DNA from: Calditrichaceae bacterium
Lineage (GTDB): Bacteria > Calditrichota > Calditrichia > Calditrichales > JBFXGD01
Direction of reading: 5' to 3'
Length of the DNA stretch: 64,000 bases
Assembly: GCA_050173015.1 (NCBI GenBank)
Contig: JBFXLE010000007.1
Location: forward strand, 119,658-183,657
Every line of letters begins with the position of its first letter. Positions within the stretch are counted from its first letter, which is position 1. Of this stretch, positions 5,013 to 46,915 are shown one piece after another. The notes beneath the pieces are model-generated. The model saw nothing but the letters and a program-made list of their open reading frames with translations, was not told the origin of the DNA and searched no databases. A program made the position numbers and the translations under genes.

Positions 5013-5222
5013 TTATGCTTTGATATTTATACCTAATTCCTGCTGACGTATAAATGTTTTAATGCGCGCAATCTCCCTACGCACAAATCTGATCCGAATG
5101 GGGTTAGTCAGCTGATGCGTCGCTTTCTGAAGGACAAGATTTTCATATTCATCTTGAACTTCACGCAACTTCTCATTTAATTCGTCCAGGGTAAGTCCTT
5201 TTATATCTTCTTTGCTCTTCAT
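5013..5222 (-). CDS. rpmC: 50S ribosomal protein L29
   Basis: [10 protein letters not shown]; synteny. Confidence 0.95.
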
Positions 5223-5236
5223 CGCTTTTACCCCTG

Positions 5237-5644
5237 TTACTCATTTACAACAAATTTTGTTTTAATTGGTAATTTATGCGAAGCTAAGCGCATAGCTTCT
5301 TTGGCCAGTTCAAGATCTACACCTTCCAGCTCGAACATAATACGGCCGGGCTTTACCACTGCTACCCAATATTCGGGAGATCCCTTACCTTTTCCCATAC
5401 GAGTTTCCGCCGGTTTTTTAGTGACGGGCTTATCGGGAAATATACGAATCCAAACTTTTCCACCGCGCTTCACGTGCCTTGTGATCGCAATACGTGTTGC
5501 TTCTATCTGTCTGCTGGTAATCCAACCGGATTCCATAGCCTTTAATCCATATTTACCGAATGCAATATAATTGCCCTTCTGGGCATTACCCTTCATTCTT
5601 CCGCGTTGTTTCTTACGATATTTAACTCTCTTAGGCATTAACAT
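5237..5644 (-). CDS. rplP: 50S ribosomal protein L16
   Basis: [21 protein letters not shown]. Confidence 0.99.
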
Positions 5645-9404: not shown

Positions 9405-9430
9405 TATTTTCTCCAAAGATTGAAGCTATT

Positions 9431-9739
9431 TCAGGTTTTTATTTCAATATCAACACCAGCAGGCAGTTCCAATTTCATCAGAGCATCTACCGTTTTGCTG
9501 GTTGCATTTAAGATATCGATCAGTCTCTTGTGAATTCTCGTTTCAAATTGCTCACGTGATTTTTTATCTACATGCGGTGAACGTAAAACTGTGTAAACTG
9601 ATCTGTCCGTCGGCAAAGGAATCGGTCCGGAAATCAACGCTCCTGTCGATCTTGCCGTTCTAATAATCTTGTCAGTCGATTTATCAATCAGATTATGATC
9701 GTAAGCTTTTAACCGAATTCTAATGCTTTGACTGGCCAC
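9431..9739 (-). CDS. rpsJ: 30S ribosomal protein S10
   Basis: [24 protein letters not shown]; likely GTG start at 9739 behind GGAG (track start 9751). Confidence 0.97.
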
Positions 9740-9788
9740 AACTTTCTCCACTAATTATTTGTTAAATGTGCAACTGAACCTATTTGCA

Positions 9789-10979
9789 CTATGCAATAAT
9801 CTCCGACACAACACCGGCTCCCACCGTACGTCCGCCTTCACGGATCGCGAAACGCAATTCCTTCTCCATGGCGATCTCTTTCAGCAACTCGATCTCAACC
9901 GTTATGTTATCACCAGGCATTACCATCTCTACGCCGGAAGGCATACTTACCATACCCGTAACATCGGTTGTACGGAAATAAAACTGCGGACGATACCCGT
10001 TAAAAAACGGAGTGTGACGCCCACCTTCTTCTTTTGTCAATACGTATACTTCACCTTTGAATTTGGTATGAGGCTTAATTGATCCGCCCTTTGCCAAAAC
10101 CATACCGCGTTCAATTTCTTCTTTTGTCACACCGCGCAACAGAAGACCAACATTATCTCCCGCTTCACCGCGATCCAACAACTTGCGGAACATCTCAACA
10201 CCGGTAACAACCGTCTTGCGATGAGCTCCCAAACCGATCATCTCAACTTCTTCACCAACCGTAACAACACCGCGCTCAATTCTGCCTGTGGCCACCGTAC
10301 CGCGACCGGTAATCGAGAACACATCTTCAACCGGCATCAGGAACGGCTTATCAACATCACGCTGCGGAGTCGGAATATATTCGTCAACCGCCGCCATTAA
10401 CTCAAAAATAGCCTTATTCGCTTCATCATCATCCGGATTATTCAACGCGTTCAAGGCGCTGCCTTTTATGATTGGTATGTCATCACCAGGAAATTCGTAT
10501 GAAGATAAAAGCTCACGCAATTCGAGCTCAACCAATTCCAACAACTCCGGATCGTCCACCTGGTCAACCTTATTCATAAATACTACGATATAAGGCACGT
10601 TTACCTGACGGGCAAGCAAAACATGCTCGCGGGTCTGCGGCATCGGACCGTCGGCGGCGCTCACTACCAGAATCGCTCCGTCCATCTGAGCAGCACCGGT
10701 AATCATATTCTTTACATAATCGGCGTGACCGGGACAGTCAACATGCGCATAATGACGATTGGCCGTCGCATACTCAACATGAGCAGTCGCGATCGTAATA
10801 CCGCGTTCACGTTCTTCCGGAGCATTGTCAATACTGTCAAAACTACGGAAAGATGCTGTACCACCTTTAGCAAGCGCTTGAGTGATCGCTGCAGTTAAGG
10901 TTGTTTTACCATGATCAACGTGACCGATGGTACCAATATTTACATGGGGCTTACTTCTATCAAATTTTTCCTTAGCCAT
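9789..10979 (-). CDS. tuf: Elongation factor Tu (str-operon copy)
   Basis: [17 protein letters not shown]; follows fusA. Confidence 0.99.
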
Positions 10980-42546: not shown

Positions 42547-42584
42547 TTTTATTCTATATTTCATTAATCAAATATAGAATAAAA
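42547..42584. promoter_or_regulatory. Near-perfect 38-bp palindrome (candidate operator)
   Basis: TTTTATTCTATATTT-cattaatc-AAATATAGAATAAAA, 20 nt upstream of the 42526 start. Confidence 0.5.
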
Positions 42585-42789
42585 TAAACCTGAAATCTAA
42601 TTCCGGGAGTCGGACGGATAAATTATTAATTCCGCGCGCCTAAAACATTTTCGCAATTATGGAAATTTTTCACATGAGTTTCCGACAAATGAGAAAACCC
42701 GAAAATGGTTCAAAATCCAATAAAGTATATAAAAACAACAAATTAAACCACTTGTGCTTTTTTTCATTTTATTGGCATCATTTTTGTCT

Positions 42790-42811
42790 ATCTACATTGA
42801 CAAATGTAGAT
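42790..42811 (+). promoter_or_regulatory. Palindromic operator centred on a TTGACA -35 box upstream of MerR gene
   Basis: ATCTACATT-GACA-AATGTAGAT; TTGACA at 42797-42802. Confidence 0.65.
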
Positions 42812-42849
42812 TTTCTACTTATTTCAAATCACACGAAGTGTAAATTGCA

Positions 42850-43323
42850 ATGAAGAAAAAAATTGATATCTATGACGCGGTATTAACGATAGGCACAGTC
42901 GCGAAACTCGTTGATGTGGCTGTCCAGACCATTAGAATGTATGAACAGGCGGGCCTTATTCTGCCGGTCAAAACCAGCACTGGTCGCCGAATGTATTCCG
43001 CTCGCGATGTTGACAGATTGCGGTGTGTAAGAAATATGATCAGAGAACACGGACTGAATCTGAACGGAATTAAACGACTCATGTCATTATTACCCTGCTG
43101 GGAATTTAAAGGCGGTCTTGATGAAGACTGTCGCCACTGCCCGGCTTATTATGATCTCGAAGGTCCATGCTGGACTTTGAGAAATGTGGGTGATAAATGT
43201 AAAAACGCGAATTGCCGGGATTGCGAAGTTTACCGTATGGAGCTGGATTGCAAGAGACTTAAGGAGATCGTTTTTGGCCACAAACGACCACTGGATCCTC
43301 AGGGGACTAAAAGCGAAAAATAA
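42850..43323 (+). CDS. MerR-family (HspR-like HTH) regulator with Cys-rich 'two-CW' C-terminal domain
   Basis: TIGTVAKLVDVAVQTIRMYEQAGLI.P....GRRMYS; tail CWE..CRHCPAY..CW..C..CRDCEVY..C. Confidence 0.88.
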   Translation: MKKKIDIYDAVLTIGTVAKLVDVAVQTIRMYEQAGLILPVKTSTGRRMYSARDVDRLRCVRNMIREHGLNLNGIKRLMSLLPCWEFKGGLDEDCRHCPAYYDLEGPCWTLRNVGDKCKNANCRDCEVYRMELDCKRLKEIVFGHKRPLDPQGTKSEK

Positions 43324-43419
43324 AATACCTGAACAATTTCACATTAAATAAGCGGTGGCAGGTTAATTAAACCTGTCTATAATTTCAACCATATATTACT
43401 TAAATTAGGAGAAAGCAAA

Positions 43420-44691
43420 ATGAAAGTAAAGACGATTAAAGCTTTTGCAATTCTTTCAGTTGCTGTTTTTGTCCTGTCTCTAACTTCCTCAGAAGCTTTA
43501 GCGACAAATGGTTATTTTAGTCACGGTTATGGAACTCAAAGCAAGGCAATGGCAGGTGTCGGTGTAGCCCTACCGCTTAATACGATGGACGCGGCTTCAA
43601 ATCCCGCAACCATGGTGTTTTTAGGCAACCGTTATGATGTGGCAGTTTCATTGTTTAATCCCAATCGTGAATACACTATTACAGGTAACCCTTCAATGAT
43701 GGAAGGTACTTTTGGATTAGCTCCCGGGACGGTCGAAAGTGACACAAAAACCTTTTTTATCCCTTCTCTGGGCGCCAACTGGATGCTGAATCCGCAAAGT
43801 TCATTCGGATTGTCAATCTTCGGAAATGGCGGTATGAATACCGATTATGACACCAACACGTTCTGGGGAACCACTCCTACGGGCGTCAATATTTCACAAT
43901 TATTTGTTTCAGGTACCTATGCCCGGAAAATTAATGACAATCATGGTTTAGGCATTAGCGCCATATTTGCGTACCAGTATTTCAGCGCTGACGGCCTGGA
44001 AGCATTCGGAGGTTTTTCAACCGACGCCTCGAAATTAACCGGAAATGACAATTCCAATTCAACCGGTTTTGGATTTAGAGTCGGTTATATGGGTTATATA
44101 CTGCCGAATCTAAGTCTTGGCGCTTCCTATCAGTCCAAAATCTATATGAGTGAATTCGATGATTACGCAGGTCTTTTTGCCGAAAAAGGTGATTTTGATA
44201 TTCCGGCCAACTGGACAGTGGGTCTTGCATATAACGCGACTGACGCGCTGACATTTGCCGTTGACGTTCAGCAGGTATTATACAGTGGAATTAAATCAAT
44301 CAACAATCCGATGAATCCGGCTGATTTTCAGCAGGGTATTTTGCTGGGCAGCGACGACGGCGCAGGATTTGGCTGGGATGACATGATGGTTTATAAATTT
44401 GGTGTTCAGTATGCTGCTATTCCTTCGTGGACATTCCGCGCGGGTTATTCATTTGGTGAACAGCCGATTCCGGAAAGTGAAGTCATGTTCAATATCCTCG
44501 CGCCCGGTGTTATAGAACAACATATAACTTTTGGTCTTTCAAAAATGGTTGGTGAAAAAGAAGTCAGCTTGTCGGTAATGCATGCTTTCTCAAATTCTAT
44601 AAGCGGTGCAAATCCAATGGAAGTACCCGGACAGCAGGAAATAGAACTTAAAATGGATCAATGGGAAGTTGAGATCGGCTTTGCATTCTAA
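43420..44691 (+). CDS. OmpP1/FadL/TodX family outer-membrane transporter
   Basis: Signal peptide, hatch ATNGYFSHGYG...AMAG, NPA motif, C-terminal Phe. Confidence 0.9.
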   Translation: MKVKTIKAFAILSVAVFVLSLTSSEALATNGYFSHGYGTQSKAMAGVGVALPLNTMDAASNPATMVFLGNRYDVAVSLFNPNREYTITGNPSMMEGTFGLAPGTVESDTKTFFIPSLGANWMLNPQSSFGLSIFGNGGMNTDYDTNTFWGTTPTGVNISQLFVSGTYARKINDNHGLGISAIFAYQYFSADGLEAFGGFSTDASKLTGNDNSNSTGFGFRVGYMGYILPNLSLGASYQSKIYMSEFDDYAGLFAEKGDFDIPANWTVGLAYNATDALTFAVDVQQVLYSGIKSINNPMNPADFQQGILLGSDDGAGFGWDDMMVYKFGVQYAAIPSWTFRAGYSFGEQPIPESEVMFNILAPGVIEQHITFGLSKMVGEKEVSLSVMHAFSNSISGANPMEVPGQQEIELKMDQWEVEIGFAF

Positions 44692-44742
44692 TTGAAAGAA
44701 TAGAATAATTTTACCGAAAGATCTCTACAAATAAAAATGACA

Positions 44743-44793
44743 AAAAAGCCGTCTCTGCTTTAAAAATCTTGCTGAGACGGCTTTTTCTTTTTT
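44743..44793 (+). terminator. Intrinsic terminator/attenuator after FadL-like gene
   Basis: AAAAAGCCGTCTC...GAGACGGCTTTTT then T-rich tail. Confidence 0.7.
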
Positions 44794-44815
44794 CACGTTA
44801 AAAGGGGTCCTAAGA

Positions 44816-45826
44816 ATGAGAAAATTCACTTCAATAATTGTGGTTCTGACTTTTTGTATGATATTACCGGTTCTGCTAATCGCCCAGGATCACATCGAAA
44901 AAAAGCAAGGCGTGTATGAGTATGTAGTCACTAAGGCGAATGGTGATTTTAATCAGGTGTCATCTTCCATTGAAAACGCCGTCAATGTCAAAGGTTATAA
45001 ACTTCTTGCTAAAATGGATACAGGCTTAAAAGAGGAATGCTCGTACAAATCCCGCGTATTTGTAATTTATGATTCAGTCTATGCCGAAAAATTGATGGAT
45101 ATGAATAAATTAACAGCGCCATTTGGCATTATTGACCGCTTCAACCTATTTGAGGATGAGGACGGCATTCATATTAGTATCGTTAACCCGGTTTCCATAA
45201 ACCGGACAATATTGATGGAAGATGAAAAGAATCTGTCTTTCCTAAATCAACACAAAAATAATCTCAGGGCCGTAATCGAAAAGGCAGTATCCGGAACTAT
45301 GACCAGCGTCCAGTATGGCGAATTCAGGAAAAAAGGATACATCGGCCGTACCATGGGTGTAATGGCAGGCGGTGACTTCGACGGTAAAATTGAAGAAGCA
45401 GCCGTAGTTACAGGAATGGATCTTCCCGTTGTTTTACAAAAACTGCAAAAGGGATTTGAAAAGAGCGACGGTAAATGGAATCTGCATCTCATTTACTCGC
45501 TGAATGTTCCCGGAAAGCAACTCGCTGTCCTTGGTTTAAGCAGCTCCGCGGTGGAAGGCAAATCTTATTCAATCGTCAAAAACGGCAATGATAATAATCG
45601 GGATGGATTCTCATGTCCGGGTCTGGCTCATGCAGCGGCTTATCCTCTGGAAGTGGTTGTGGTGAAGGAAAGTGACGGTATAAAAATTAAAATTGTTGAC
45701 GCCATGTTCAGGATGAAAATGTACTTTGAAGATGCCGGAATGATGGCATTCGCGAAAAACATGACCATGCCCGGATCAATTCAGGACGAAATAAAAGATA
45801 TGATTAAATCCGCGCTTGAACTGTAA
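44816..45826 (+). CDS. Exported protein, two DUF302/TT1751-like domains (tentative)
   Basis: Signal peptide; two similar alpha/beta halves (F..V...IE.A....GY.LL / RFNLFEDEDGIHISIVNP and YPLEVVVVKE..GIKIKIVD). Confidence 0.55.
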   Translation: MRKFTSIIVVLTFCMILPVLLIAQDHIEKKQGVYEYVVTKANGDFNQVSSSIENAVNVKGYKLLAKMDTGLKEECSYKSRVFVIYDSVYAEKLMDMNKLTAPFGIIDRFNLFEDEDGIHISIVNPVSINRTILMEDEKNLSFLNQHKNNLRAVIEKAVSGTMTSVQYGEFRKKGYIGRTMGVMAGGDFDGKIEEAAVVTGMDLPVVLQKLQKGFEKSDGKWNLHLIYSLNVPGKQLAVLGLSSSAVEGKSYSIVKNGNDNNRDGFSCPGLAHAAAYPLEVVVVKESDGIKIKIVDAMFRMKMYFEDAGMMAFAKNMTMPGSIQDEIKDMIKSALEL

Positions 45827-45850
45827 ACACATTCTGACTGATTAACTTCT

Positions 45851-45889
45851 AAAAATCCCCGCTAATTTTTAAATCGCGGGGATTTTTTT
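45851..45889. terminator. Bidirectional terminator between 45826 gene and rhodanese
   Basis: AAAAATCCCCGC...GCGGGGATTTTT. Confidence 0.8.
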
Positions 45890-45915
45890 CTTTTTTCAAA
45901 GGATGATTTGATTTT

Positions 45916-46245
45916 TTACTCGAGTTTTGCGGAATCGACAGGATATCCCTCCTCATTCCACGCAACGATTCCCCCCGCCAGATTGATAAGGTTAGAGTAG
46001 CCCCTTGATGCCAGGTAAGTTAGAAGATCAGCGCTCCTGCTGCCGGTCCGGCAATAAATGACAACATCCCTGTCCCCCGGTAATTCATCCATACGACGGC
46101 CAATTTCACTCATGGGCAGCCACCGTGATCCCGGGATTCTCGCTTCAGCGAATTCGTGTTCCTCGCGTATATCAATAAATTCAATCCCGTTATCAAATTC
46201 GGTTTTAGCCGTGTCAGGCCACATATTACGAAATTTTGAGTTCAT
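45916..46245 (-). CDS. Single-domain rhodanese (sulfurtransferase)
   Basis: IDIREEHEF...RIPGS, active-site YCRTGSRS, NLAGGIVAW; start ATG 46245. Confidence 0.93.
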   Translation of the reverse strand: MNSKFRNMWPDTAKTEFDNGIEFIDIREEHEFAEARIPGSRWLPMSEIGRRMDELPGDRDVVIYCRTGSRSADLLTYLASRGYSNLINLAGGIVAWNEEGYPVDSAKLE

Positions 46246-46501
46246 ACAATTGCTGCCATTCAGTTTATAAGATCCATTAAACAAAAATAACAAAAAATTA
46301 TTTCTATAATTATCTTAAATTTCTGATCAAACACTGCAATATTGAATTAATTAAGTATCACCACAATGCAAATTCCCGGACTAATTTTGATCAGATATCA
46401 CCATTGTACTAAGATTTGTAAAAAATCCGTCGTATAATGATATTTTAACAACATGCAGCATTTTTTCAAAAAAACATTCTTCCACCATCCGGGTTACAAA
46501 A

Positions 46502-46915
46502 ATGAGAATTAAAAGACGTATTCTTCTTATTAATGATCGAGAAGATGAAATTATATTAAGAATGTTTCTGATCAAAAAATGGATTTCTGAATCAAAAAAT
46601 GATAAACCCTATCTTATCAGTTTATTCAAAGCTTTAAACTCAAATGAAGCTTTCAATACACTCATCAGTAATGGTTTTGAATTCGACCTTATTATAACGG
46701 ACCTCGAACGTGGGGATGATGATCCAATAAAATTTATACAATTCTGCAAAGAATTTTTCCCTGATATCAAAGTGTTGGTTTTAAGCTATCACTCTGAGAA
46801 AAACCTTCTTGAACTCGGACAGGATGCGGATTTCGCTTTGTCTGCCGCGGAAAGTTACGAGACTACTGTTGCAGTACTGGATCACTTGTTGTTTAACCGA
46901 CCTCTTAATATTTAA
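46502..46915 (+). CDS. Stand-alone atypical receiver-domain protein
   Basis: RILLIND, FDLIITDL, IKVLVLS; conserved Lys absent. Confidence 0.65.
   Translation: MRIKRRILLINDREDEIILRMFLIKKWISESKNDKPYLISLFKALNSNEAFNTLISNGFEFDLIITDLERGDDDPIKFIQFCKEFFPDIKVLVLSYHSEKNLLELGQDADFALSAAESYETTVAVLDHLLFNRPLNI

Follow-up and report, generated by a model that had tools for sequence, protein, structure and literature searches.

Elemental sulfur is almost insoluble in water, yet it is respired, oxidised or deposited extracellularly by many bacteria. How, then, does it cross the outer membrane? Passages of two papers call this step unconfirmed or unelucidated (PMC10045233; PMC13510729), and the same question was raised by a locus in the 64,000-nucleotide stretch of DNA analysed here, hereafter the window (G000:C7:119658-183657). 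The window belongs to a genome of 4.34 Mb and 97.5% completeness, the closest named relatives of which are metagenome-assembled genomes (MAGs) of the Calditrichaceae. The locus comprises three genes on the + strand between 42850 and 45826, which encode the following proteins: a MerR/GlnR-like regulator of 157 amino acids (aa) with a cysteine-rich C-terminal domain (42850..43323); a FadL/TodX-family outer-membrane channel of 423 aa (43420..44691); and a secreted two-domain protein of 336 aa (44816..45826). A preliminary description of this DNA had named a MerR regulator, a FadL porin, an exported protein and a rhodanese, had placed the first three in a co-oriented trio and had suggested the import of a hydrophobic sulfur species. 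All four genes were recovered as open reading frames (ORFs) at the positions given there, and the trio lies on one strand as described.

In this study, the conserved unit was found to consist of the channel and the double-DUF302-like protein of 336 aa, and this unit was repeatedly built into operons that make zero-valent sulfur (type III SQR) or consume it (Psr); both conclusions are well supported. A link of the module to sulfur metabolism as such is very probable. The more specific reading, that the pair is a zero-valent-sulfur transit module co-regulated with polysulfide respiration, was given a probability of about 0.5; the substrate, the direction of transport, the hand-off, the repression and the signal are what we infer for it.

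Gene neighbourhoods across phyla and in the host genome

Contigs representing one genome per species yielded 101 confirmed matches to the 336-aa protein, of which 80 loci were kept, all from MAGs assigned to the Calditrichota, KSB1, Vicinamibacteria and other Acidobacteriota, Gemmatimonadota, Bacteroidota, Rhodothermia, Eisenbacteria and Krumholzibacteriota. Six-frame ORFs were searched with the four window proteins, ORFs of at least 80 aa were clustered, and the representatives were named by Pfam and NCBIfam. The ORF calling was crude (maximal ORFs with greedy removal of overlaps), so that small genes such as TusA went uncounted. A FadL-family gene was adjacent (at most 400 nt away) and co-oriented in 54 of the 80 loci, lying upstream of the 336-aa gene in 37, downstream in 13 and on both sides in 4, and several distinct channel subfamilies were represented among these genes. 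Moreover, at least one core sulfur gene (type III SQR, DsrE2, DsrC/TusE, YeeE, rhodanese-like, PsrA or NrfD) was present in the surveyed flanks of 34 loci, and in 21 of the 40 loci with at least 4 kb on both sides. The preliminary description had proposed a survey of this kind as a check on its sulfur reading, and its outcome speaks in favour of that reading.

Among the sulfur loci, 19 were of an SQR type (with SQR, DsrC or DsrE2) and 16 of a Psr/YeeE type, one locus having both. In one architecture, a regulator gene is followed by genes for type III SQR, a DUF1641 protein, DsrC/TusE, DsrE2, the channel and the 336-aa protein; the SQR scored 675 bits on NF049943 (cut-off 525), and DsrE2 and TusE/DsrC were also recognised. 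In the other architecture, PsrA, PsrB, NrfD (PsrC), YeeE in two halves and a rhodanese-like protein are encoded beside the pair or beside the 336-aa gene alone, and in four loci (L019, L021, L023 and L044) the 336-aa gene joins the psr, yeeE and rhodanese-like genes without a channel gene. The order of the pair is inverted in the Gemmatimonadota, where the 336-aa gene precedes the channel gene and an ArsR/BigR-like regulator precedes SQR. Regulators of the ArsR/BigR-like type stand beside the pair in 6 loci, and an NtrC-type sigma-54 response regulator is adjacent in 13 loci of the Vicinamibacteria and KSB1, accompanied by a histidine kinase in 4 of them. The loci without sulfur genes had heterogeneous neighbours with no other recurring theme, and no beta-oxidation, aromatic-degradation or lipoate genes recurred among the neighbours scanned (76 of 124 selected neighbour ORFs). 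As a separate observation, a conserved gene of approximately 385 aa without a Pfam or NCBIfam match (cluster c16) flanks the pair in 12 Gemmatimonadota loci, which include L051, L053, L058, L060-L063, L066, L071, L076 and L081.

A comparable operon is known from Methylacidiphilum fumariolicum SolV, in which, according to passages of the original report, a type III SQR-TusA-DsrE2 operon is upregulated with H2S and SQR is proposed to convert H2S to S0 (PMC10205796). The relatives of the present module likewise combine type III SQR with DsrE2 and a small sulfur carrier. However, their carrier set is DsrC/TusE with a DUF1641 protein, a MerR-type regulator comes first and the channel/DUF302-like pair comes last, and the SQR part is absent from the window's own genome. 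In the main texts of the literature searched, no FadL plus DUF302 sulfur module was found to be described, and the module appears to be a variant of a FadL-type uptake system that is undescribed in print.

In the host genome, tblastn with representatives of the neighbour families detected no type III SQR, DUF1641 protein, DsrC or DsrE2. The sulfur genes of the host form a single locus on contig C4, comprising a MerR paralogue of the regulator, psrA, psrB, psrC, two YeeE halves and a rhodanese-like gene; with all sulfur genes at one locus, a placement within 7 kb by chance would have a probability under about 1%. The psrA product was PhsA-like (495 bits, below the equivalog cut-off) and carried the twin-arginine motif RREFIK. 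The rhodanese-like protein of this locus (L082, G000:C4:98000-111000, 9415-10077 (+)) has a membrane anchor, lacks the cysteine of the active-site loop and ends in DEGC, and a family of approximately 211 aa resembling it was seen in 12 of the 80 loci. Across 86 genomes of the phylum, strong matches to the 336-aa protein were patchy (23 genomes, E ≤ 2.2e-74). In several Calditrichota genomes (G006, G011, G040, G044 and G066), genes for type III SQR and a PsrA-like protein lie 2-7 kb apart on the same contig, forming a combined island of sulfide oxidation and polysulfide reduction.

The regulator and its operator

The N-terminus of the regulator is a MerR-type winged helix-turn-helix (HTH) domain (PF13411, 67.4 bits; PF00376, 43.1 bits), and seven cysteines in its tail (C83, C97, C107, C117, C122, C125 and C134) were invariant in nine aligned sequences, so the earlier label of a cysteine-rich MerR protein was apt. 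The cysteine-rich domain also carries two PCW motifs. By profile comparison with the PDB, the DNA-binding domain was nearest to the GlnR/TnrA branch of the MerR family, GlnR being the best solved-structure match (5.9e-16). These profile matches covered mostly residues 1-82 and at most residues 1-100, and the cysteine-rich domain had no solved-structure match. On the NCBIfam equivalogs the regulator fell far below all cut-offs and matched over residues 10-100 only. By its effector domain, it lies outside the described MerR subfamilies (CueR, ZntR, SoxR, MerR, HspR and GlnR/TnrA). Like the persulfide sensors CstR, SqrR/BigR and FisR, the regulator heads SQR-type operons; unlike these, it has a MerR-type HTH rather than a CsoR-, ArsR- or NtrC-type fold. 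It differs from GlnR/TnrA and the persulfide sensors alike in its seven-cysteine domain and in an operator that lies 3' of a sigma-54-type element.

Close orthologues of the regulator were sought in metagenome contigs, which gave 20 loci. The gene behind the orthologue encoded type III SQR in 14 loci, PsrA in one and the channel in one, and the contig ended in the remaining four. The single PsrA-type locus continues with psrBC, yeeE and a rhodanese-like gene, and the single channel-type locus continues with the 336-aa gene and belongs to a 97% identical relative. In L087 and L088 the SQR operon runs through DsrE2 into the channel gene. In L089 and L094 no channel gene stands behind DsrE2, which indicates that the channel/336-aa pair is an optional extension of the SQR operon. 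Within the host, the C4 paralogue is a 39% identical cysteine-rich MerR protein whose gene overlaps the start of psrA by 8 nt. Taken with the operator data below, it is well supported that in Calditrichota-type genomes the pair shares a dedicated regulator and operator with SQR and Psr operons. A third cysteine-rich MerR paralogue is encoded on contig C8 (L083, G000:C8:149000-159000, 5094-5510 (-)), where it heads an operon for a 645-aa GltD-like iron-sulfur (FeS) flavoprotein, a Rieske protein and cytochrome b, with no obvious sulfur enzyme.

The putative operator is the palindrome ATCTACATT-GACA-AATGTAGAT at 42790..42811, a perfect inverted repeat (100% complementary over 9+9 nt) with the core TACATT-N4-AATGTA, as the preliminary description had noticed. 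The C4 paralogue is preceded by the near-identical site ATCTATATTGAAAAATGTAGAT. These two sites were the sole matches to the 22-mer with one mismatch genome-wide, the next best having 4-5 mismatches; a shuffled-genome control gave 13 hits at up to 5 mismatches. The core also precedes the C8 paralogue. In L005, L034, L038 and L042 it stands before the regulator gene at a distance of approximately 40-55 nt, and 19 of the 20 metagenome loci have it (with at most two mismatches) 35-60 nt before that gene. Three core-like sites lie upstream of the C8 paralogue. An exact core copy at G000:C15:66189-66204 (L104, approximately 2690) has no regulator gene alongside, and about 1.4 kb next to it contains no ORF of at least 70 aa.

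The promoter regions of the window, of both paralogues, of four genome loci and of 19 metagenome loci (26 in all) were aligned on the palindrome; two of them, L038 and L088, have the same sequence, and L084 barely differs from the window. The alignment revealed a second shared element. The motif TGG[CT]A[CT]-N5-TTG, which we take to be the -24/-12 signature of sigma-54 promoters, ends 4-7 nt 5' of the palindrome core in 23 of the 26 promoters, against 0.013 expected from its genome-wide frequency. In the window it reads TGGCAT-N5-TTG (42773..42786, + strand) and ends 6 nt 5' of the core. The three promoters without it are L034, the C8 paralogue and L090, in which the sequence ends after 15 nt. 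The genome encodes rpoN (199.9 bits). Furthermore, a second, weaker palindrome lies 23 nt further downstream in seven loci, and sigma-54-type motifs stand directly before the channel or 336-aa gene in approximately 10 of the 80 loci (L005, L008, L012, L015, L017, L018, L048, L054, L057 and L067).

Since the palindrome lies just 3' of the sigma-54-type element, the operator overlies the transcription start, which is predicted about 12 nt behind the TTG (42784-42786). A repressor of a sigma-54 promoter would be placed in this way, whereas a MerR activator sits in a long sigma-70 spacer. A sigma-70 promoter of the MerR type was considered and rejected, because a consensus scan gave no more sites in the region than chance would (10, with 12.2 expected) and none that looked like a promoter across the operator, and because the palindrome follows the sigma-54-type element in 23 of 26 promoters. 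Judged from the sequence, the regulator would thus lack the MerR trait of an operator inside a 19-20 bp sigma-70 spacer with activation by DNA distortion, and the arrangement points to repression rather than classical MerR activation. Approximately 200 nt 5' of the sigma-54-type element lies an AT-rich inverted repeat of 19+19 nt (42547-42584; 95% complementary, no spacer), which could be a candidate site for an enhancer-binding protein.

What the regulator senses is open to a second account, namely that it is a general redox or oxygen sensor, holding an iron-sulfur cluster or zinc on its seven cysteines, and serves anaerobic respiratory operons regardless of sulfur. The seven invariant cysteines exceed the two of known persulfide sensors, and the C8 paralogue heads an operon of flavoprotein, Rieske protein and cytochrome b without an obvious sulfur enzyme, which would suit such a role. 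The 16 orthologue loci that could be judged, however, lead into SQR (14), Psr (1) or the channel pair (1), and ArsR/BigR-like regulators take the place of the MerR protein in these operons in other phyla. This account is possible, at odds clearly below even.

The secreted protein and the channel

The 336-aa protein begins with a hydrophobic, signal-like helix and had no Pfam (E ≤ 0.01) or NCBIfam match, PF03625 included; some of its homologues carry a precomputed PF03625 match. Its AlphaFold 2 (AF2) model was confident (predicted local distance difference test score, pLDDT, 88.2; predicted template-modelling score 0.84), and residues 31-159 of the model have the DUF302 fold (1q9u: Z 14.9, root-mean-square deviation (rmsd) 1.9 over 123 aa; 1j3m: Z 12.7). 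The term DUF302-like, which the preliminary description had applied to this protein, is therefore justified by the fold of these residues and not by a Pfam match on the protein itself. The strand and helix order of the C-terminal half equals that of the N-terminal half, and hhalign gave a weak match between the halves (P 0.003, probability 10%, 121 colinear columns). For residues 188-336, the best structural match was Flpp3-like at Z of approximately 8. No fold name was assigned to the C-terminal domain, the Foldseek and structure matches (Flpp3, Bet v 1 and TBP-like) being middling at this Z. From the model, it is plausible that this domain is a second DUF302-like domain.

The protein belongs to a discrete family. 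When 1.84 billion representatives were searched with a profile, 200 matched at E ≤ 1e-3, of which 66 reached E ≤ 1e-30; many of the matches were fragments, and ordinary DUF302 proteins did not appear among them. A word-indexed search found 387 relatives, and look-alike clusters in the Atlas came from the Nitrospirota, Pseudomonadota, Gemmatimonadota, Ignavibacteriota and Bacteroidota. When the window protein and its 80 locus-encoded relatives (81 sequences) were aligned, each of the 80 sequences covering position 75 had the cysteine there (Cys75), and 75 of 81 had Cys267. Approximately 40 positions were at least 97% conserved, many of them Arg, Asp or Glu; they include R108, D114, E115, R130, R171, R262, E279, R299, D306, N315 and M318, and a conserved stretch reads M297-R-M-K-M-Y-F. 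DUF302/TT1751-like proteins (1J3M, 1Q9U; PF03625) share the fold of the N-terminal domain, but the 336-aa protein differs from them in having two domains and a signal peptide, in lying below the Pfam threshold and in forming a compact family with an invariant cysteine. ORFs of 341-398 aa in G011, G015, G020, G021 and G046 match the C-terminal domain only (profile positions approximately 190-330, E 1e-24 to 1e-29) and look, from their sequences, like a paralogous family sharing this domain.

The periplasmic carriers Sud of Wolinella succinogenes and SoxYZ hold sulfur on cysteine. A likeness is proposed in that a cysteine-borne sulfur chain could feed a periplasmic enzyme such as Psr, by analogy; the folds are unrelated, and the 336-aa protein had no rhodanese or SoxY/Z match in Pfam or NCBIfam.

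A rather unlikely alternative keeps the link to sulfur and dispenses with the S0 conduit. Here the 336-aa protein would act in the periplasm, as an enzyme or sensor, on a sulfur compound that is anionic or organic (polysulfide, thiosulfate, polythionate, lipoate or another organosulfur compound); this compound, or else a small hydrophobic organosulfur molecule, would enter through the channel. The roughly 40 highly conserved positions, with their many charged residues, are more typical of an active site. In addition, single-domain DUF302 genes occur in sox clusters of the Acidithiobacillia, for which passages of one paper speculate on a role in trithionate oxidation (PMC5037610), and a DUF302 gene lies in the sqr operon of Synechocystis, with no function given in the portion of the source consulted (PMC5061849). 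On the other hand, no lipoate-ligase, sHdr or sox genes were present among the scanned neighbour families. Moreover, anions would need no FadL-type lateral-diffusion channel. More generally, the available passages of the DUF302 literature describe no function for any DUF302 protein.

The channel scored 96.2 bits on PF03349 (cut-off 29.7) and comprises a signal peptide, an N-terminal hatch and a barrel. Residues 30-423 of its AF2 model (pLDDT 85.8) aligned with Escherichia coli FadL (1t16) at Z 38.6 (348 aa, rmsd 2.6), with TbuX at Z 37.0 and with TodX at Z 36.9, so that the full FadL fold with its hatch is modelled. The NPA motif, which has a role in the hatch of FadL-family proteins, is kept: N61 and P62 were invariant in 23 sequences, with the consensus ATNPAAM. 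In sequence profiles against the PDB, TbuX (1.2e-23), TodX (2.8e-23) and CymD (7.5e-20) came far before E. coli FadL (approximately 1e-4). These profile and fold matches make the channel a genuine member of the TodX/TbuX kind and not a fatty-acid FadL, which, by sequence, speaks for TodX, TbuX and CymD in the question of grouping raised by the preliminary description. By analogy with the family, the channel would be expected to open laterally at the S3 kink and to let a hydrophobic substrate pass. An identity as a PorV-type shuttle of the type IX secretion system (T9SS) was rejected, given 37.6 bits on the NCBIfam PorV model (cut-off 90), PorV structures at Z of approximately 27 against 38.6 for FadL, and the lack of a T9SS tail on the partner protein; PorV and BAM-associated FadL-fold proteins together ranged over Z 27-30. 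A complex prediction of channel residues 29-423 with residues 25-336 of the 336-aa protein, each with its alignment, scored 0.00 and weighs neither way.

TodX (Pseudomonas putida), TbuX (Ralstonia pickettii), CymD and, more distantly, E. coli FadL thus belong to the same PF03349 family and hatch fold (Z 36-38.6). In contrast to these, the window channel has no hydrocarbon or fatty-acid catabolic genes nearby; no beta-oxidation or aromatic genes were present among the window ORFs by ORF list and Pfam, as had been observed before. Channels of the window type instead have a dedicated secreted DUF302-like protein as their partner, and their genes lie within sulfur operons. This comparison bears on another explanation, that the cargo is hydrophobic but not sulfur (a hydrocarbon, lipid or quinone-like compound) and that sulfur genes are merely frequent neighbours in such islands. 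The nearest solved relatives of the channel do carry toluene, cymene and similar compounds, over half of the loci lack sulfur genes in the surveyed flanks, and sulfur genes are common in the phylum (63 of 86 genomes). Nevertheless, aromatic-degradation and beta-oxidation genes do not recur as neighbours, the pair lies on the same strand directly beside SQR or Psr genes in several phyla and in differing gene orders, and the shared regulator heads sulfur operons; a cargo other than sulfur is improbable. It is less probable still that the module handles selenium or another chalcogen: neighbour families do score on selenium NCBIfam models (YedE/FdhT, the selenoprotein subtype of type III SQR and a rhodanese-related selenoprotein), SQR excepted below the cut-offs, and selenite uptake in Geobacter has been connected with a porin and a rhodanese-like lipoprotein, according to a title cited in PMC13510729, but the SQR genes read through as ordinary cysteine forms without in-frame stops, and DsrC/TusE, DsrE2 and Psr are sulfur-pathway families.

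The proposed transit of sulfur and further features of the locus

If the pair is a zero-valent-sulfur transit module, the following course may be envisaged. Expression would start at the sigma-54-type promoter, and the regulator would bind the palindrome over the predicted start and act as an autorepressor, probably until sulfane sulfur or a redox change is sensed by its seven-cysteine domain and it leaves the DNA. The channel would pass hydrophobic zero-valent sulfur (S8 or a polysulfane) through the outer membrane; the 336-aa protein would take it over, probably as a polysulfane on Cys75 with invariant arginines nearby, and would pass it to or from sulfur enzymes. In the host, the enzyme partner would be the polysulfide/thiosulfate-type reductase PsrABC of contig C4, exported by the twin-arginine (Tat) route. 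Because the host has a periplasmic Psr and no SQR, the likely direction would be uptake for respiration, and in relatives with the pair at the end of a type III SQR operon, sulfur could instead be released. For Chlorobaculum tepidum, a passage of a preprint speculates that a FadL-family protein carries hydrophobic sulfur chains (bioRxiv 10.1101/172254). The boldest form of the proposal is that the pair is the long-sought outer-membrane route of S0, serving uptake before Psr and release behind type III SQR with a polysulfane on Cys75, and that a novel Calditrichota MerR/GlnR-like regulator with seven cysteines blocks a sigma-54 promoter at its start site; in this full form it is offered tentatively, as possible but doubtful.

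Several observations weigh against a transit module for zero-valent sulfur. No sulfur gene was present in the surveyed flanks of 46 of the 80 loci, including 19 of the 40 loci with at least 4 kb on both sides. Co-occurrence at the genome level within the phylum is weak: a type III SQR or PsrA-like gene was found in 20 of the 23 genomes with the 336-aa protein and in 43 of the 63 without it, a comparison made barely informative by the high base rate of these genes. In the window, a terminator-like hairpin parts the channel gene from the 336-aa gene, and the sole sulfur-related neighbour is a genus-specific rhodanese. Furthermore, the many invariant charged residues of the 336-aa protein could equally well belong to an enzyme or to a protein that binds anions, instead of one carrying a hydrophobic ring. 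The sulfur reading in the preliminary description is partly supported: the sulfur-gene neighbourhoods, the TodX/TbuX-like channel and the regulator orthologues at the head of sulfur operons speak for it, the membership of the rhodanese falls, and the substrate, the direction of transport and the signal sensed stay putative.

The pair nevertheless offers a compact two-gene candidate for the passage of sulfur through the outer membrane, conserved over approximately eight phyla and found repeatedly inside SQR and Psr operons. It has a single invariant cysteine that can be mutated, and its operator and promoter are defined and can be assayed, so that the question of sulfur passage becomes directly testable. 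If the transit reading is true, it would provide the first functional lead for DUF302, a widespread fold, and would add a MerR-type protein apparently acting on sigma-54 promoters.

The convergent rhodanese behind the 336-aa gene is a single-domain protein without a signal peptide (45916..46245, - strand; PF00581, 65.3 bits), and the intact CRTGSR loop reported for it is present. Its ORF spans 45916-46293 (-), with a likely start at the ATG at 46245. A convergent rhodanese was found in only 2 of the 80 loci: the window rhodanese recurs beside the 336-aa gene only in L002, from the same genus, and L026 has a convergent ThiF-rhodanese. With adjacency confined to the same-genus relative, the rhodanese was rejected as a module member.

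The module is flanked by housekeeping genes for an aminotransferase, a C-N hydrolase, a DUF4846 protein, PntAB and a UbiA-type protein. Three hairpins lie between the genes. A short one in the spacer between the regulator and channel genes (43357..43377, + strand) has no T-run behind it. The one between the channel and 336-aa genes (44743..44786, + strand) has 16-nt arms of 94% complementarity and a T-run, and with this terminator-like structure in place tight co-transcription of the trio stays putative. The third, between the convergent 336-aa and rhodanese genes (45851..45887), has 17-nt arms of 88% complementarity flanked by A and T runs and is likely a bidirectional terminator. Beside the rhodanese gene, an ORF of 137 aa (46502-46915, +) without a Pfam match at E ≤ 0.01 has the look of a receiver domain by eye (ILLINDRED...DLIITDL).

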